A stretch of DNA of 64,000 nt from an uncultured Bdellovibrionales bacterium (lineage in GTDB: Bacteria; Patescibacteriota; Minisyncoccia; Moranbacterales; UBA2206), in contig CAYOTC010000002.1 of the NCBI GenBank assembly GCA_964406815.1, positions 7,906-71,905 of the forward strand, written 5' to 3'. The position numbers and the translations under genes are program-made. Positions 26,436 through 50,974 of the stretch are shown here, in pieces. The notes under the pieces were generated by a model. That model did not search any database, was not told the DNA's origin, and was given only the letters and a program-made list of their open reading frames with translations. Numbering within the stretch: position 1 is the stretch's first letter; every line of letters begins with the position of its first letter.

Positions 26436-28040
26436 CTATTCCACCCGATACTTCTCTTTCATTAATTCCTCTTCTTTTTTCTTTTCTTCTTCAATTTTTT
26501 TCTTAGCCATATCGCGAAGTTCCTCTAAGTCTTTATTATTAAGATCTTTAGCTAACTCAAGAAGTTTTGTTTTTTCATTCAATTTTTGGTCGTCAATAAC
26601 CAAGGCCAGAAGAACATCCAAAATTGTGCCGATTTTCGGTCCAGGAGCTATGTTTAGTTTTTCCATCAAATCATTTCCGTTAATTTTCAGTTGTTTGACG
26701 GAAATAGCATCGTAAGAAACTTTTTCCACCATAAACTTGAAGTGGCGAAGCTTATACGGCACAGCTTTTGGTACTCCAGAGCCCAATCTGTCCGCTATCC
26801 TGACATCAATAAGATCGTTGATATTTTCCAAACCGACTTTTTGGATGACACGTCGCACCCCCGACTCCCCGACTTCATCAACGTTGTAATAAAACATATG
26901 GTTTTTCACGAGAAGTGCGGTTTTATCGATGATATTTTTGGAAAATTTCAAGCGTTCAAGAATTTTTTTTGCAAGGCGTGCCCCCGCATATTCATGAGCA
27001 TAAAAAGTGGCATTCTCCCCTTTTCCGCGCTTGGTTTCCGGCTTTCCTATATCATGAAGAAGAGAAGCCAGTCGCACTTCCAATTTTTTTGACGGACATT
27101 TTTCCAAACTGGCAATAAGATGTTTATAAACCGTATTATATGGTCCGTAATAATGATGATGGCTCTGCTCTACTTCTATTCCGATTTCGATTTCCGGAAT
27201 TATATATTGCAATAGGCCGGTTTCATGGAGTATTTCTACGCCTTTGGCCGGTTGAGCTGAAAGCATGATTTTCCCAAATTCGTCCCGAATTCTTTCGGCT
27301 GAAATGAATTTAAGGTTTTTAGCATTGCCTTTTATCGCTTTTAGGGTTTTATCTTCAATTTCAAAACCAAGTTGGACAGCAAAACGGACAGCCCGCATCA
27401 TTCGGAGCGCATCTTCATTGAATCTGTCAGTAGGCTTCCCTACTGCCCGGATAATTTTATTTTTCAAATCATTTTGTCCGTCGAATAAATCAATTATCTC
27501 AAAATCAATGTTTTTAATCTTAAGGGCCATAGCATTTATCGTAAAATCCCGGCGACTCAAGTCTTCTTCCAAGTTTTTGGCAAATTTTATGGCATCAGGA
27601 TGACGTTTGTCGGTATATTTCGACTCGATTCTATATGTCGTAATCTCTACAACTTCTACTTTCTCCGATTCTTGATCCTTATTTTCTGTTTCTTGTTTTC
27701 TGATTTTTACGCCGACTGTGCCAAAATCATTTTCATAAACACTATCTGGAAATATTTTCACGATTTCATTAGGTTTAGCATTAGTTGCGATGTCCCAATC
27801 TTTCGGTTCGACAGGCTCACCGTGGATGATTCTAATGAGAAAATCTCGCACACATCCGCCGACGATAAAAGCCTCAAAGCCGTTCTTTTCGAGCTCATTT
27901 GTCACTTCCAATATATACGGTGGAATTTTTTCAATCATATTATTGTCTTTATCATATACTTCTTCGCCATAAAAAGGCAAATCAAAAATTCCGGAAAATT
28001 TCCGGAGTTTTTTCGTTTGTGCCCTCAGCAGGAATTTCAC
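26436..28040 (-). CDS. cca: CCA-adding enzyme / poly(A) polymerase-family tRNA nucleotidyltransferase with HD domain
   Basis: 'FIVGGCVRD' (GGxVRD), 'RRDFTINAMA', and HD motif 'LLHDIGKP'. Confidence 0.8.
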   Translation of the reverse strand: MKFLLRAQTKKLRKFSGIFDLPFYGEEVYDKDNNMIEKIPPYILEVTNELEKNGFEAFIVGGCVRDFLIRIIHGEPVEPKDWDIATNAKPNEIVKIFPDSVYENDFGTVGVKIRKQETENKDQESEKVEVVEITTYRIESKYTDKRHPDAIKFAKNLEEDLSRRDFTINAMALKIKNIDFEIIDLFDGQNDLKNKIIRAVGKPTDRFNEDALRMMRAVRFAVQLGFEIEDKTLKAIKGNAKNLKFISAERIRDEFGKIMLSAQPAKGVEILHETGLLQYIIPEIEIGIEVEQSHHHYYGPYNTVYKHLIASLEKCPSKKLEVRLASLLHDIGKPETKRGKGENATFYAHEYAGARLAKKILERLKFSKNIIDKTALLVKNHMFYYNVDEVGESGVRRVIQKVGLENINDLIDVRIADRLGSGVPKAVPYKLRHFKFMVEKVSYDAISVKQLKINGNDLMEKLNIAPGPKIGTILDVLLALVIDDQKLNEKTKLLELAKDLNNKDLEELRDMAKKKIEEEKKKEEELMKEKYRVE

Positions 28041-28061
28041 CCCGCAACCATTTTTTGTTTG

Positions 28062-28133
28062 TCTCCTCAGTAGGAATCGAACCTACATCTCATCCTTAGG
28101 ACGGATTTGCTCTATCCATTGAGCTATGAGGAG
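28062..28133 (-). tRNA. tRNA-Arg (anticodon CCT)
   Basis: Manually folded. Acceptor CTCCTCA/TGAGGAG, D-arm GCTCAATGGATAGAGC, anticodon loop GTCCTAA, T-arm GTAGG-TTCGATT-CCTAC, discriminator A. Confidence 0.8.
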
Positions 28134-28165
28134 GAATATTAATTTTAAAAATGGTGCGAGGCAGG

Positions 28166-28238
28166 CCTACATCTCATCCTTAGGACGCCTGCCTGCCAGT
28201 AGGCAGGGATTTTCTCTATCCATTGAGTTATAGAAGCT
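28166..28238 (-). pseudogene. Truncated tRNA-Arg(CCT)-like pseudogene carrying a GC-rich hairpin insertion in the anticodon arm
   Basis: The 5' acceptor, D-arm and anticodon loop are near-identical to the adjacent tRNA-Arg. A 20-22 nt insert (gcctgcctgccagtaggcaggg) is present, and the T-arm is replaced by flank sequence. Overlaps the 3' end of the hydrolase ORF. Confidence 0.45.
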
Positions 28239-28802
28239 TGATATTATTTCAGTTATTTTTTTGTCGTATTTTTCATTCCAATCATGCTCCACGTTTTCCA
28301 TATCTATTATCGGGATATTTTTAGAATACAAATAATCTCGCATTATTTTATCACAATAAACATAATCTTTTTCTCCGCAAATCACAATCAGTTTATCTTT
28401 CGGAATTTCATTTAAAATAGCATCGAAATCATATCTTAGCAATTGCCAGCATTTTTTGATACTAAAAATATAATTTCTGAAGCCCTGTATATGTTTTTTT
28501 GTTGCAGGAGTTTTTTCGCGTCTGTGGAAAGTTATCCATTTTCCAAACCATGTAAAAATACTTCTTTTTGGAATTAAAGGATTCACCAAGATAAGATTTT
28601 GATTCTTGTTTTTTTTCCAATTGAGCAAAGCCCAATTGCATCCTAAACTATGACAGATTAAAAAATCAGCGGATATTGGATATGTTTCGGCTAATCGTTC
28701 TTTCCATATTTCTAGGACTGTATGTAGAGAATTTTTTCCAATATACATCCCCCCTTCATTCAGCCAACCGGGAATCAGAAGTATTTTTTTATTATTTTCC
28801 AT
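28167..28802 (-). CDS. Alpha/beta-hydrolase-fold protein (esterase-like)
   Basis: 'ILLIPGWLNEGG' and a nucleophile-elbow-like 'CHSLGC'. The track ORF's N-terminal extension to 28916 runs across tRNA genes and is taken as spurious. The C-terminal 18 aa are read out of the pseudo-tRNA. Confidence 0.45.
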   Translation of the reverse strand: MENNKKILLIPGWLNEGGMYIGKNSLHTVLEIWKERLAETYPISADFLICHSLGCNWALLNWKKNKNQNLILVNPLIPKRSIFTWFGKWITFHRREKTPATKKHIQGFRNYIFSIKKCWQLLRYDFDAILNEIPKDKLIVICGEKDYVYCDKIMRDYLYSKNIPIIDMENVEHDWNEKYDKKITEIISSFYNSMDRENPCLLAGRRPKDEM

Positions 28803-28817
28803 TTTATTTATCTTATG

Positions 28818-28860
28818 TGGACTTGAGGAGATTTGAACTCCTGACCCCTGCAATGCGCCA
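28818..28860 (-). pseudogene. tRNA 3'-half remnant (T-arm AGGAG-TTCAAAT-CTCCT plus acceptor strand) directly downstream of tRNA-Ala(CGC)
   Basis: Canonical T-arm and a 3' acceptor strand CAAGTCC-A are present. No matching D-arm or 5' acceptor. Confidence 0.35.
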
Positions 28861-28880
28861 CGCATCAAAACAAATTCTTG

Positions 28881-28953
28881 TGGACTGTACCGGAGTCGGA
28901 CCGGTGACCTCCGCAATGCGAATGCGGCGCTCTACCAACTGAGCTAACAGCCC
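28881..28953 (-). tRNA. tRNA-Ala (anticodon CGC)
   Basis: Acceptor GGGCTGT/ACAGTCC with the G3:U70 Ala identity pair, D-arm GCTCAGTTGGTAGAGC, anticodon loop TTCGCAT, and an unusual T-loop TCCGACT. Confidence 0.8.
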
Positions 28954-28975
28954 TAATAATTTTTTGTGCGGTGTA

Positions 28976-29103
28976 AAAATGCAGTGCTCGGACCCTGTCC
29001 GCCCTCTGGCGGAAACTGAGCTACAAGCCCGTCGAATCAGTGAACAATACTGGACTCGGACCAGTGACCTCTATAGTGCTTGCCCCGCACAAATTTATAA
29101 ATA
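28976..29103 (-). pseudogene. Rearranged tRNA-Ala-like fragments bounded by inverted GTGCGG/CCGCAC
   Basis: A 3' half (AGGTC-ACTGG-TCCGAGT-CCAGT-ATTGTTC-A), a 10-nt spacer, then a 5' half (GGGCTTG-TA-GCTCAGTT... with a CCGCCAGAGGGCGG hairpin in the D-loop). Both halves resemble the intact tRNA-Ala. Confidence 0.35.
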
Positions 29104-29220
29104 TATTTGCAGGCACAATCTTTTTAACGGAAATGTTTTTAATAATCTGAGACATTCAGTAAATTATTTGTTGCGGGGTGAAAATGTAGCGCTCTAACTT
29201 CACCCCGCACCATTTTTTTG

Positions 29221-29294
29221 TGGACCTGTCCAGGTTCGAACTGGAGACCTCGCCGATGTGAACGGCGCACTCTAACCAGCTGAGCTACAGGTCC
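29221..29294 (-). tRNA. tRNA-Val (anticodon CAC)
   Basis: Acceptor GGACCTG/CAGGTCC, anticodon loop TTCACAT, T-arm TCCAG-TTCGAAC-CTGGA. Confidence 0.85.
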
Positions 29295-29353
29295 ATAAAA
29301 ATGGTGCGGGGCAAGACTGAGCTAATTGTCCGAATTAAATTTTTATAAATTAG

Positions 29354-29426
29354 TGGACCTGAGGAGACTCGAACTCCTGACCTCTTCCATGCCATGGAAG
29401 CGCTCTACCAGCTAAGCTACAGGCCC
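29354..29426 (-). tRNA. tRNA-Ala (anticodon GGC)
   Basis: Acceptor GGGCCTG/CAGGTCC with G3:U70, D-arm GCTTAGCTGGTAGAGC, anticodon loop ATGGCAT, T-arm AGGAG-TTCGAGT-CTCCT. Confidence 0.85.
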
Positions 29427-29577
29427 GAAATAAAAATGTTACTCAAAAATTTTACCTCGACTATCCCCTTTTAGTCAAACTTCCTGATCGATTAAGTTTG
29501 TATAAAGTAATTTTTTAGACAAGAATAATTTTATATTTGCGATAATTCACTCACAATACTAGAATAAATATATTCCT

Positions 29578-50389: not shown

Positions 50390-50432
50390 CTAGTCAGTTT
50401 ATAAAGTTAAAAGTTCATAAAGTTGGAAGATT

Positions 50433-50777
50433 ATGAAAGCTGAAAGGTTTGAAGATTTATTATTTTGGAAAAAGGCGGAGCAATTAGTGTTATTCATTTA
50501 TAAAGAATTTGGAAAATGCAAGGATTATTCTTTTTGTGATCAAATTAGGCGTGCGAGTGTTTCAGTTATGAATAACATTGCTGAAGGATTCGAAAGAAAA
50601 TCCAATAATGATTTTAAGAATTTCCTTTTTATTGCTAAAGGGTCATGCGGGGAAGTCAGATCTATGCTGTATTTAGCTTTAGAGTTAAAATATATTAATG
50701 AAAGAGAATATAAAGAGTTAAATTTTTTAGCAACAGAAATATCAAAAATGATTTCTGGATTCATAAAGACTTTGTGA
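50433..50777 (+). CDS. Four-helix-bundle protein (23S rRNA intervening-sequence protein family)
   Basis: 'LLFWKKAEQLVLFIYKEF...NNIAEGFERKSNNDFKNFLFIAKGSCGEVRSMLYLA' matches the TIGR02436/PF05635 signature. Sits between two tRNA genes. Confidence 0.65.
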   Translation: MKAERFEDLLFWKKAEQLVLFIYKEFGKCKDYSFCDQIRRASVSVMNNIAEGFERKSNNDFKNFLFIAKGSCGEVRSMLYLALELKYINEREYKELNFLATEISKMISGFIKTL

Positions 50778-50829
50778 ATTTCGTGTACTTTAAAAACTTT
50801 ATGAACATTATTAACTTTTAACTTAATTT

Positions 50830-50901
50830 GGGACCATAGCTCAGCGGTAGAGCAGGCGACTCATAATCGCTTGGTCGCTGGTCCGAATCCAGCTGGTCCC
50901 A
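50830..50901 (+). tRNA. tRNA with CAT anticodon (elongator Met or tRNA-Ile2/lysidine substrate)
   Basis: Acceptor GGGACCA/TGGTCCC, anticodon loop CTCATAA, T-arm GCTGG-TCCGAAT-CCAGC, G1:C72 pair (not an initiator). Confidence 0.8.
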
Positions 50902-50903
50902 CA

Positions 50904-50962
50904 CTCAAAAAATCTTGGCGACTTTTCGCAATCGCTTGGTCGCCCCGCCCGTGGCGGGGCTG
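50904..50962 (+). pseudogene. Partial duplicate of the CAT-tRNA anticodon arm and 3' end
   Basis: ggcgacTTTTCGCAatcgcttggtcgc + CCCGCCCGTGGCGGGG + ctggtcccac: an expanded 10-nt loop, with the T-arm replaced by a GC hairpin. Confidence 0.35.
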
Positions 50963-50974
50963 GTCCCACGAATA

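Follow-up and report, generated by a model that had tools for sequence, protein, structure and literature searches.

The window, by which we mean the whole 64,000-nucleotide (64-kb) stretch of DNA that was analyzed, comes from a candidate-phyla-radiation bacterium and holds an array of four intact tRNA genes on the minus strand. All four, tRNA-Arg(CCT), tRNA-Ala(CGC), tRNA-Val(CAC), and tRNA-Ala(GGC), had been named in a preliminary description of this DNA and are called by both ARAGORN and Rfam RF00005 (61-65 bits). Three of them lie inside palindromic hairpin elements, here termed E, which in turn lie inside the pieces of older outer tRNA genes, here termed X, Y, and Z. The features are as follows.

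29353-29426, minus strand: tRNA-Ala(GGC), intact, first gene of the array, with neither interruption nor flanking element (ARAGORN; Rfam 64.6 bits)
29316-29331, minus strand: X piece 1, the 5' strands of the acceptor stem and D-stem plus the beginning of the D-loop (GGACAATTAGCTCAGT)
29199-29315, minus strand: E_Val, interrupting the X D-loop; CTTG, arm CCCCGCACCATTTTT, tRNA-Val(CAC), arm AAAAATGGTGCGGGG, TGAA
29220-29294, minus strand: inner tRNA-Val(CAC), intact, cargo of E_Val (ARAGORN; Rfam 61.6 bits)
29183-29198, minus strand: X piece 2, from the end of the D-loop through the D-stem 3' strand and the anticodon stem 5' strand to the first two anticodon-loop bases (GTTAGAGCGCTACATT)
29079-29182, minus strand: E2, cargo-less, interrupting the X anticodon loop; TTCA, arm CCCCGCAAC, interior, arm GTGCGGGG, CAAG
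29041-29078, minus strand: X piece 3, from the last three anticodon-loop bases through the 3' strand of the anticodon stem, the variable region, and the T-arm to the 3' strand of the acceptor and the discriminator
28978-29030, minus strand: Y 5' part, acceptor 5' strand GGGCTTG, D-arm, anticodon stem 5' strand CTGCA, then TT
28858-28977, minus strand: E_Ala, in the anticodon loop of Y, carrying tRNA-Ala(CGC); arms CACCGCACAA / TGATGCGTGG
28880-28953, minus strand: inner tRNA-Ala(CGC), intact, cargo of E_Ala (ARAGORN; Rfam 65.1 bits)
28818-28857, minus strand: Y 3' part, loop bases CGCAT, then TGCAG as 3' strand of the anticodon stem, variable region, T-arm, CAAGTCC as 3' strand of the acceptor, and discriminator
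28167-28802, minus strand: 211-aa ORF between outer Y and outer Z
28166-28237, minus strand: Z 5' part, acceptor 5' strand, D-arm, anticodon arm with CCT, and T-stem 5' strand GTAGG
28036-28165, minus strand: E_Arg, interrupting the Z T-loop; CCTG, arm CCTCGCACCATTTTT, tRNA-Arg(CCT), arm AAAAAATGGTTGCGGGG, TGAA
28061-28133, minus strand: inner tRNA-Arg(CCT), intact, cargo of E_Arg (ARAGORN; Rfam 61.2 bits)
28020-28035, minus strand: Z 3' part, final three bases of the T-loop, then CCTGC as 3' strand of the T-stem, TGAGGGC as 3' strand of the acceptor, and discriminator
26436-27938, minus strand: class II CCA-adding enzyme gene, directly downstream of the array (Pfam PolyA_pol, HD, and tRNA_NucTran2_2 in homologues)

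None of the four intact tRNA genes has an encoded CCA, with which the CCA-adding enzyme next door is consistent. The enzyme gene, 64% identical to the neighboring gene in locus L141, served as the synteny anchor for finding relatives. The 211-aa ORF, previously described as a hydrolase, matched no Pfam family at E ≤ 0.001; its final ~23 codons run through the remnant of Z, and it is a neighbor, not a component of the element. Elsewhere in the window, a tRNA-Met gene (50830-50902) is followed by an att-site-like partial 3' copy, and a 23S_rRNA_IVP gene is bracketed by a 24-nt inverted repeat.

The tRNA fragments of the array are the paired halves of three older genes, Val-CAC (X), Ala-CGC (Y), and Arg-CCT (Z), each broken within a loop by a hairpin element that encloses an intact tRNA of the same anticodon. 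The acceptor strand of X piece 1 pairs 7/7 with ATTGTTC at 29042-29048, across the intact tRNA (GGACAAT/ATTGTTC), and the strands of Y likewise pair 7/7 across theirs (GGGCTTG/CAAGTCC), including G3:U70. The intact Val gene of L141 begins with exactly the sequence of X piece 1, and its positions 19-34 match X piece 2. Three pieces (29316-29331, 29183-29198, and 28020-28035) had been overlooked in the preliminary description, which for that reason missed the pairing across the intact tRNAs. It had correctly picked out a truncated Arg copy with a hairpin, overlapping the ORF end (28166-28237), and a lone T-arm plus acceptor 3' half, which is the 3' part of Y. It had also singled out a 128-bp block with a 3' half preceding a 5' half. 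Both halves are there in that order (28978-29078), but the block is not one unit: it is the 3' end of one interrupted gene next to the 5' end of the following gene.

That description had offered two readings, a decaying tandem array or a permuted or split tRNA gene in the 128-bp block. Partial tRNA copies do exist, the block does have a 3' half ahead of a 5' half, and it gives a weak match to the Rfam family YrlA, a tRNA-like Y RNA (17.7 bits, E = 2.6). This match is, however, far under threshold. The acceptor strands within the block, ATTGTTC and GGGCTTG, pair at only 4/7 positions, whereas each pairs 7/7 across an intact tRNA, and the fold of the block is no better than that of shuffles (z = −1.5). 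Without the hairpin elements the pieces fit together exactly as three complete tRNA genes, and the nested architecture recurs in many genomes (~20 besides this one), neither of which fits decay of a tandem array. We therefore regard both readings as extremely improbable.

Once the four elements and the two small hairpins were taken out, ARAGORN called Val(CAC), Ala(CGC), and Arg(CCT). The ancestral order is Ala-GGC, Val-CAC, Ala-CGC, Arg-CCT, and then the CCA-enzyme gene. L002 and L141 have this gene order by the same CCA-enzyme gene with Val and Ala-CGC uninterrupted, and L005 has an uninterrupted Arg-CCT at the matching position. Reconstructed X is 94.6% identical to the intact Val gene of L141, whose loop TTCACAC is the exact loop predicted upon removal of E2, and reconstructed Z shares 90.3% identity with the uninterrupted Arg gene of L005. 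The inner Val, by comparison, shares just 67.6% identity with outer X and with the resident Val genes of the relatives. X has a C·A mismatch in its anticodon stem, and Z has one acceptor mismatch, three wobbles, and a broken D-stem pair. Both Y and Z bear extra hairpins (TCCGCC-AGAG-GGCGGA in the Y D-arm at 28994-29015; CTGCC-TACTG-GCAGG in the Z 5' part at 28188-28206). Because of these mismatches and hairpins, the ORF overlapping Z, and the fact that no single excision gives a 7-nt loop, we infer that the outer halves in the window are dead relics.

Each E is ~100-130 bp long and ends in conserved, GC-rich arms, CCCCGCACCA / TGGTGCGGGG, with 4-6 covarying base pairs directly inside them. The window has four copies, inserted in the D-loop and anticodon loop of Val, the anticodon loop of Ala, and the T-loop of Arg, and three of them carry a tRNA with the anticodon of the gene that was destroyed. 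Inverted flanks had been reported around tRNA-Arg and tRNA-Val, and this holds: perfect 15-nt inverted copies of AAAAATGGTGCGGGG stand on both sides of tRNA-Val(CAC), and near-perfect ones (1 mismatch, 1 inserted base) bracket tRNA-Arg(CCT). No coding-strand copy lies upstream of tRNA-Ala(GGC), where the motif had also been placed; the further copies, at 29079-29097 and 29169-29182, belong to E2, the interior of which is ~76 nt, A+T-rich, and without a tRNA. The arms of E_Ala are decayed (arm-like 10-mers at 2 mismatches), and L100 holds an intact counterpart of its architecture. When the 64-kb window was scanned, all arm-like 10-mers at ≤1 mismatch fell within 28040-29311, and GTGCGGGG occurred 3 times against 0.34 expected.

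The proposal that the flanks form a processing helix extending the acceptor stem was borne out in part: the helix is real and 15-19 bp long. The RNA of E_Val folds at −64.7 kcal/mol (z = −8.4), and E_Arg folds as a cloverleaf within a 16-bp helix (z = −5.1). Helix positions 11-14 covary: changes on both sides number 25, compared with 9.3 in shuffles (0/500 shuffles as high). On the tRNA-sense strand G·U occurs 22 times but A·C only 4 times. Pairing at the RNA level is also indicated by compensatory arm changes among four E copies in an RNase P RNA gene. Given this covariation across genomes and the bias toward G·U, the arms are very likely paired as a helix in the primary transcript.

The hairpin family is widespread in candidate phyla radiation bacteria, and we did not find it in the literature searched. 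At least 100 other genomes contain E, most of them Patescibacteria. The search pattern CCCCGCACCA-N80-110-TGGTGCGGGG matched at least 120 genome loci, where by our own estimate chance would give ~30; among the matches listed are ~65 named Patescibacteria lineages and ~11 GC-rich, chance-like ones. A tRNA is carried in 27/120 loci among the matches listed, 2-8 nt from the arms, and ~20 of these 27 lie inside an outer tRNA of the same isoacceptor. The other 93/120 lack a tRNA and lie between genes at sites unrelated to one another, in many cases flanked by exact 4-nt repeats. Where a cargo-less element splits a tRNA, an intact copy stands alongside (L027, L128).

The helix could also be a processing stem evolved by the host, old in Patescibacteria tRNA operons and comparable to the RNase III stems around rRNAs, with the fragments as by-products of local duplication. 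The covariation and G·U bias, which point to selection on RNA pairing, agree with this, as do arms so close to the tRNA, arm sequence kept across very distant lineages, and the failure to find a transposase beside the copies. Against it stand the many tRNA-less copies just described and close relatives that have these tRNAs without the helix. The flanks are also missing from the window's other tRNAs (Ala-GGC, Val-GAC, and Met), and local duplication leaves the 68% identity between inner and outer Val unexplained. We consider this explanation unlikely.

Several signs point instead to a mobile element. Exact 4-nt direct repeats, mostly TCAA or TAAA and never longer than 4 nt, flank 28/119 copies, against ~3 in shuffled pairings; there are multiple copies per locus or genome; and orthologous sites exist both filled and empty. 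From these we infer that E is a past or present non-autonomous mobile DNA element of the MITE/palindromic-repeat kind. No transposase or recombinase was found beside any E copy, so the signs of mobility are indirect. Identical flanks occur in only 24% of perfect-arm copies, which is low for young DDE-type insertions, and the window's own copies show no simple target-site duplications. At tRNA loops the junctions follow a rule, a CA (or TG) dinucleotide becoming TTCA-E-CA(A/G)G, and in the T-loop TTCR becomes CYYG-E-TGAA. Such stereotyped junctions are not predicted by plain cut-and-paste. The conservation of the 10-bp helix in very distant lineages could reflect a conserved host factor instead of recent spread.

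Tyrosine integrases that target tRNA genes reportedly cross over, classically, in the anticodon loop or the T-loop. The fragments might thus be scars of an island or prophage that entered such a loop, brought tRNA sequence, and was then mostly deleted. Flanking bases do seem to travel with the element, and the partial 3' copy behind tRNA-Met is what an att site would give. However, integrases produce direct repeats of the tRNA 3' part and not a complete nested gene, insertions occur in D-loops too, and between the arms there is only a tRNA, with no integrase or island remnant. A scan of 2.9 million viral contigs with the exact-arm pattern also gave no true copy. An origin as integrase scars appears very unlikely to us.

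Outside the window, the outer genes of L059, L074, L026, and L100 have all four stems intact, which could reflect recent insertion or a residual structural role. One RNase P RNA gene holds four E copies at the P3 and P9 hairpin positions, with compensatory changes within the 10-mer arms, so E is tolerable inside a functional RNA. These cases, the compensatory changes that distinguish the inner from the outer gene in L074, and a GC-rich, covarying helix joining the outer halves at a loop would suit an RNA-level intervening sequence, an intron or rRNA-type IVS, with the outer tRNAs still functional. RNase P and a 3' nuclease would free the inner tRNA while the arms held the outer halves in the manner of Nanoarchaeum, and the halves would be ligated (e.g., by RtcB) or used as a two-piece tRNA. 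Yet a 9-nt anticodon loop remains once TTCA-E or E-CAAG is taken out, and in T-loop copies TTCR is gone. Bulge-helix-bulge geometry is absent, and the host is a bacterium; the archaeal splicing endonuclease is not known from bacteria. The D-/T-loop flanks CYYG-E-TGAA are the reverse complement of the anticodon-loop flanks TTCA-E-CARG, which fits a recognition signal at the DNA level and not at the RNA level. Moreover, the outer gene never brings a new anticodon, cargo-less interrupters of tRNAs adjoin an intact copy, and the window's outer genes are visibly decayed. We judge a functional intervening sequence quite unlikely.

Taken together, we favor with moderate confidence an account in which a mobile palindromic element exchanges tRNA genes for others of the same kind and leaves dead outer halves behind, with its arms paired as a helix in the transcript. 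A hit in a single-copy, essential tRNA gene would be survivable only if the element brought a working copy, after which it could not be lost; for that reason nested like-for-like replacements would accumulate, while other insertions would be purged from streamlined genomes. Such a retention bias might account for the ~20 of the 27 cargo copies that sit in a cognate gene. Resident promoters would drive transcription of the array, and the paired arms would stack below the acceptor stem of the inner tRNA, stopping the GC-rich arms from disturbing tRNA folding and perhaps serving as a site for double-strand-specific cleavage. The inner tRNAs would then be matured by RNase P, a 3' nuclease, and the neighboring CCA-adding enzyme.

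E shares features with several known systems. Transposing tRNA introns of Thermoproteales are cited in PMC10714607, and such archaeal intervening sequences act as mobile units, as E appears to. Split and multi-intron tRNAs of archaea (Nanoarchaeum equitans; Thermoproteales) are similarly interrupted in the D-, anticodon, or T-loop, with a GC-rich complementary pair after the 5' piece and before the 3' piece. In contrast, E has a bacterial host, no bulge-helix-bulge, and an excision that restores no canonical loop; it holds a whole tRNA, and the interrupted gene, redundant with the cargo, decays. The 23S rRNA IVS removed by RNase III are also extended stem-loops in a hairpin loop of a stable RNA, co-transcribed and with a paired stem, whereas the hosts of E are tRNAs and RNase P RNA, and the host tRNA does not survive insertion.

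Integrative elements that target tRNAs insert in the anticodon loop or T-loop with sequence that keeps the tRNA functional, and this function ties the element to its host, as with E. Theirs is only the 3' portion of the tRNA at the attachment site, with an integrase gene and a 3' direct repeat, while E carries a complete gene with its acceptor stem and both old halves stay. Dada DNA transposons of eukaryotes are said to target small RNA genes, inserting specifically inside those for tRNA or snRNA, which recalls the insertion of E into tRNA genes. Unlike E, Dada encodes a transposase and targets multicopy genes, so it needs no replacement copy.

E also resembles the bacterial MITEs and palindromic elements. 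Rickettsia palindromic elements, Correia, and ERIC are ~100-130 bp without an ORF and have terminal inverted repeats and a whole-unit hairpin; as with E, many copies are flanked by short direct repeats, and a genome holds several copies. They, too, sit in functional genes, as E does in RNase P RNA with no obvious destruction. E differs from them in its stereotyped tRNA-loop junctions, which are not simple duplications, and no partner transposase was found for it. Its 10-bp termini are conserved across many Patescibacteria classes, and its interior is replaceable: in about one-fourth of the copies it is a complete tRNA, the isoacceptor of the interrupted gene.

Four intact tRNA genes, Ala-GGC, Val-CAC, Ala-CGC, and Arg-CCT, lie on the minus strand between positions 29426 and 28020 of the window. 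ARAGORN and the Rfam tRNA model agree on all four, as the preliminary description had it. None of them (0/4) encodes CCA, and a class II CCA-adding enzyme gene is found directly 3' of the array. By its protein matches, the organism belongs to the Patescibacteria, near Moranbacteria. Read on the coding strand, each tRNA-like piece between these genes has its partner across an intact tRNA and not in its immediate neighbor. They make up three interrupted outer genes, termed X, Y, and Z.

29331-29316, minus strand: start of outer Val (X), GGACAATTAGCTCAGT
29078-29041, minus strand: last piece of outer Val (X); the ATTGTTC at its end is the acceptor partner of the X start
29030-28978, minus strand: 5' part of outer Ala (Y), which begins GGGCTTG
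28857-28818, minus strand: 3' part of outer Ala (Y), which ends CAAGTCCA
28237-28166, minus strand: Arg-like copy of outer Arg (Z), in the tail of an ORF
28035-28020, minus strand: piece that completes outer Arg (Z) across the intact tRNA-Arg, ATTCCTGCTGAGGGCA

Between the start and the end of X are a hairpin element bearing tRNA-Val, a 16-nt middle piece (3' side of the D-arm plus 5' side of the anticodon stem), and a second hairpin element without cargo. The acceptor strands of Y pair at 7 of 7 positions, G3:U70 included, across the intact tRNA-Ala(CGC). The outer genes were reconstructed by deleting four elements and two small GC hairpins, and ARAGORN at a slightly relaxed threshold called the products tRNA-Val(CAC), tRNA-Ala(CGC), and tRNA-Arg(CCT), with the same anticodons as the intact genes nested in them. 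As they stand in the window, the relics carry mismatches and extra small hairpins, and one is read through by an ORF.

This arrangement speaks against the permuted tRNA gene that had been considered for a 128-bp block bounded by GTGCGG/CCGCAC, in which a tRNA-Ala-like 3' half precedes a 5' half. ATTGTTC and GGGCTTG pair at only 4 of 7 positions, each half is perfectly partnered elsewhere, and as one unit the block folds no better than shuffled sequence (z = -1.5). Since the pieces reassemble into outer genes across intact tRNAs, the block comprises the 3' end of outer Val and, after it, the 5' end of outer Ala. The overlapping ORF (28167-28802, minus strand), previously called a hydrolase, does contain an HSLG motif, but it has no Pfam match at an E value of ≤0.001. 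The tRNA-Arg relic, with its hairpin, supplies the coding sequence for the C-terminal ~23 residues of this ORF and its stop codon. In one relative (L141) a different small ORF occupies this intergenic slot, and in a second (L002) the slot is empty; therefore, the spacer gains and loses genes. The small GC hairpins inside the interrupted outer tRNAs of the window (TCCGCC...GGCGGA at 28994-29015 and CCTGCC...GGCAGG at 28188-28206) are of two kinds, both of which recur in loops of interrupted outer tRNAs in unrelated genomes (loci L059, L073, L084, L109, and L141). The tRNA-Arg(CCT) of L141 is surrounded by CCTGCC-type arms.

The inverted motif reported around two of the tRNAs is real, with perfect 15-nt copies of AAAAATGGTGCGGGG flanking tRNA-Val and near-perfect copies flanking tRNA-Arg. 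A scan with the 10-mer CCCCGCACCA and its complement, allowing up to 2 mismatches, gave eight arm-like sites that form four pairs, all in 28040-29311; elsewhere in the 64-kb window there was no arm site with ≤1 mismatch. The element so defined is 100 to 130 bp in length, has no ORF, and ends in 10-bp conserved arms with a 4- to 6-bp extension. The extension pairs vary between true copies yet remain complementary. In an alignment of 23 copies, we counted 25 double-sided changes versus 9.3 in shuffles, and 0 of 500 shuffles scored as high. On the strand coding for the cargo tRNA, the helix extensions have 22 G.U versus 4 A.C pairs, a count that includes some acceptor-stem pairs; a hand count leaving these out gave ~14 versus 3. 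The helix spans 15 to 19 bp, and when the Val and Arg units are folded in silico, it stacks under the tRNA (z = -8.4 and -5.1, respectively), with a clean cloverleaf predicted for the Arg unit. As in RNase III-type stems and intervening sequences (IVS), there is a probably co-transcribed helix of ~1.5 to 2 turns in which selection keeps the pairing. From these patterns of base change, the arms very probably pair in the transcript, where the helix may serve to stay clear of tRNA folding or may also be a candidate cleavage site.

Relatives of this array were located through the neighboring CCA-enzyme gene and a scan for the predicted uninterrupted outer-Val D-arm, and the loci so found have the same array adjoining the same CCA-enzyme gene. 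In L002, Ala-GGC, Val-CAC, and Ala-CGC are compact and uninterrupted, and Arg-CCT is enclosed by the same type of hairpin, which interrupts an outer tRNA-like gene in its T-loop. At the corresponding position of L005, Arg-CCT is plain. In L141, whose CCA enzyme is 64% identical to that of the window, Val-CAC and Ala-CGC are uninterrupted, and the anticodon loop of Val (TTCACAC) is exactly the one predicted from deleting the second element. The reconstructed outer Val is 94.6% identical to the L141 Val, while the inner Val has 67.6% identity to either one. These identities imply that the outer genes are the resident orthologues and that the inner Val, at least, is an import. The outer Arg is 90.3% identical both to the L005 gene and to the inner Arg, so the Arg cargo is of local type. 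At another nested locus, L051, the inner gene may likewise stem from local duplication or gene conversion. L001, the relative whose CCA enzyme is most similar (83% identity), lacks a tRNA array at the corresponding position and is uninformative; the array is also missing there in L006 and L007.

The same outer halves could be read as parts of an intron-containing or split tRNA that the arms reunite, a reading under which split tRNAs, or tRNA introns other than group I, would be described in bacteria for the first time. Many outer genes do have intact stems, as this reading expects. Nevertheless, we disfavor it, because a 7-nt loop needs TTCA-element-CAAG to become CA, and no single excision gives that loop back; the product has 9 nt or costs T-loop bases. 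Moreover, copies in D- and T-loops have a flank pair that reads as the reverse complement of the one at the anticodon loop, the outer gene never adds decoding capacity, and wherever a copy without cargo interrupts a tRNA, an intact copy lies alongside. An archaeal-type intron or split gene also lacks its structural signature here. There is no bulge-helix-bulge and there are no 3-nt bulges 4 bp apart; the junction runs from anticodon stem through unpaired X-TTCA and CAAG-Y to the long helix. No splicing endonuclease or ligase gene was noticed among the ORFs checked in the 64-kb window. Group I introns have a core of ~200 nt or more and sit in the anticodon loop; these inserts measure 96 to 130 nt and occur in D- and T-loops as well, and Rfam Intron_gpI gave no match even at an E value of ≤10. 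At that same cutoff, weak matches of the region to YrlA, permuted-tmRNA, and Plastid-ycf2 were attributed to chance or antisense tRNA, and in the window the tRNA family alone matches at the curated threshold. The scar of an integrase att site, for which a direct repeat of the tRNA 3' segment around an integrase-bearing island would be expected, was rejected as well, as a whole tRNA is flanked by 5' and 3' pieces of one gene with neither island nor integrase between them.

A scan of one genome per prokaryotic species with the pattern CCCCGCACCA, 80 to 110 bases, TGGTGCGGGG matched at least 120 loci, where our own rough estimate of the chance expectation is ~30. Among the matches listed, ~65 come from named lineages in many classes of Patescibacteria; further ones bear labels such as Bdellovibrionales, Planctomycetota, and Thermodesulfobacteriota, and ~11 are chance-like, being GC rich, in coding sequence, and without further pairing. 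At 27 of the 120 listed loci, the arms enclose a tRNA whose ends come within a few bases of the helix, and ~20 of those 27 copies sit in the D-, anticodon, or T-loop of an outer tRNA of the same isoacceptor. At the listed loci, nested copies involve Arg, Val, Ala, Glu, Thr, Asp, Met, Gly, and Pro. The exact-arm pattern had one match in viral contigs, which was GC rich, chance-like, and without a tRNA. On metagenome contigs L161 (4700-5200) and L185, which are identical in sequence, an outer tRNA-Val with the window-type D-arm is interrupted in its anticodon loop (TTTA-TTCA-CCCCG...) by a copy bearing tRNA-Val(CAC), with two further arm pairs nearby.

Copies without a tRNA have features of their own. 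In 23 of the 93 tRNA-less listed copies (e.g., L045 421-531 and L117 3713-3822), the motif AGCCG-n(1-2)-AGGCG, with a small hairpin after it, lies at a fixed 44 to 46 nt from one end; the motif is found in either orientation relative to the flanks. Rfam searches of tRNA-less copies (15 loci at the gathering threshold and 8, 4 of them shared, at an E value of ≤0.001) gave no match on the element. On one Parcubacteria contig (L048, 100-960, minus-strand gene), four copies lie in a gene for RNase P RNA that scores 52 bits with the class A model of Rfam, less than the curated threshold; the sites they occupy include those of the P3 and P9 hairpins. Within the conserved 10-mer, the arms of these copies have changed on both sides in a compensatory manner, as in TCCCGC.../...GCGGGA and CCCAGC.../...GCTGGG. 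Five loci from different Patescibacteria (L042, L050, L081, L092, and L117) share the context ...ATTGAGCA, element, TAAGGTTTT..., then a conserved inverted repeat. This context matches no Rfam family and may be an unrecognized RNA gene or regulatory region.

Several observations point to mobility. Direct repeats of 4 nt, mostly TCAA or TAAA and never longer, abut 28 of the 119 listed copies versus ~3 in shuffled pairings. The window has four copies, extra copies occur in L048, L074, L075, L086, L090, L097, and L109, and in each of several metagenome-assembled genomes (MAGs) at least 3 contigs matched. Orthologous sites are filled or empty, the empty ones being those of L002, L005, and L141. 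[quoted passage not shown] As for an autonomous partner, no transposase or recombinase was found near any copy, the ORFs lying between widely spaced arms encode EF-Tu, helicases, and the like, all of them housekeeping genes, and ~0.9 Mb of fetched loci held no arm pairs 0.2 to 4 kb apart with flanking repeats.

In place of 4-nt repeats, the four window copies and other tRNA-nested copies have TTCA...CA(A/G)G flanks. These tRNA-loop junctions are stereotyped and not duplicated, with TTCA-element-CA(A/G)G standing in place of CA (or of TG when the opposite strand is read). This holds at both outer-Val sites when compared to the empty site of L141 and also for Glu, Met, and three other Val genes elsewhere. 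At T-loops, TTCR is replaced by CYYG-element-TGAA. Six 4-mers (TTCA, CTTG, TTGA, TTTA, TCAA, and TAAA) account for nearly half of all those flanking the ends. Formally, a staggered cut of 2 or 4 bases in the hexamer TTCAAG would yield both junction types; as the tRNA loops have no such hexamer, the element seems to bring its flanking bases along. No one insertion mechanism giving both the 4-nt repeats and the TTCA...CAAG junctions could be derived.

Known mobile or repeated sequences were compared and rejected. Integron attC sites were set aside for want of R-box sequences, and IS200/IS605 or REP-type hairpins because the variable 4-nt repeats resemble true duplications. CRISPR I-E-like repeats have the CCCCGC/GCGGGG stem alone in common with the element. 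IS91 targets (CTTG/GTTC) do not fit T-loops, where GTTC is not kept, and serine-recombinase crossover at CA predicts X-CA-element where X-TTCA-element is observed. At four loci (L102 1590-1740, L082, L121, and L015), the insertion point coincides exactly with the -35 box of a promoter resembling the sigma-70 type (TTGA, element, TTGACA-17 nt-TATAAT), and promoter elements may thus be disturbed or supplied by such copies.

Taken together, these observations would be explained most economically by a palindromic element that is mobile and swaps tRNA genes like for like. The inner tRNA genes would be the working copies and the outer halves relics. A retention bias, which is an argument and not a measurement, might contribute: a nested replacement could not be lost, and other insertions would be purged. 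A bolder and rather unlikely proposal is that the unit is an addictive tRNA-replacement cassette, a selfish ~110-bp unit that homes actively into the cognate tRNA gene, guided perhaps by homology between cargo and target tRNA or by recognition of tRNA-gene loops. Such a cassette would become indispensable because it destroys the resident gene and supplies its own copy, and it would bring horizontal tRNA-gene turnover across Patescibacteria.

Two further features lie elsewhere in the window. In 50830-50970 (plus strand), tRNA-Met(CAT) is followed after 14 nt by a partial second copy, from anticodon stem to 3' end, with an altered anticodon loop and a GC hairpin (CCCCGCC-CGT-GGCGGGG) in place of the T-arm; the genome thus has one more tRNA relic that bears a hairpin. 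Between tRNA-Val(GAC) and this tRNA-Met is a 23S rRNA intervening-sequence protein gene (50433-50777, plus strand; Pfam 23S_rRNA_IVP, E = 5e-37). It is flanked by a 24-nt, 88% complementary inverted repeat (50401-50827) and resembles an IVS cassette outside rRNA.

Because tRNA finders report the inner genes only and gene callers extend ORFs into the remnants, the nesting and the element family have been overlooked in thousands of Patescibacteria genomes. The like-for-like swap describes a tiny selfish element made irremovable by substituting its own copy for an essential single-copy gene. It also offers a route for tRNA-gene exchange between lineages, the resident Val having been replaced by one only 68% identical. 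A hairpin that is tolerated in an RNase P RNA gene and kept paired around tRNAs lends itself to asking how precursor helices are dealt with in bacteria whose RNA-processing machinery is reduced and how structured RNAs gain expansion segments. Saccharibacteria are now culturable and show natural competence (PMC10633639). The conserved 10-bp arms provide a search handle for all copies. Full-text searches of an incomplete literature collection gave no description of the element, of tRNA-in-tRNA genes, or of such RNA-gene insertions in Patescibacteria; a preprint on tRNA group I introns, a prokaryote-wide MITE survey, and the TIGR-Tas paper are unrelated to it. In kind, the element belongs with known small palindromic insertion elements and with the intervening stem-loops of stable RNAs. 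Its tRNA cargo, like-for-like nesting, and breadth across Patescibacteria appear to be new.
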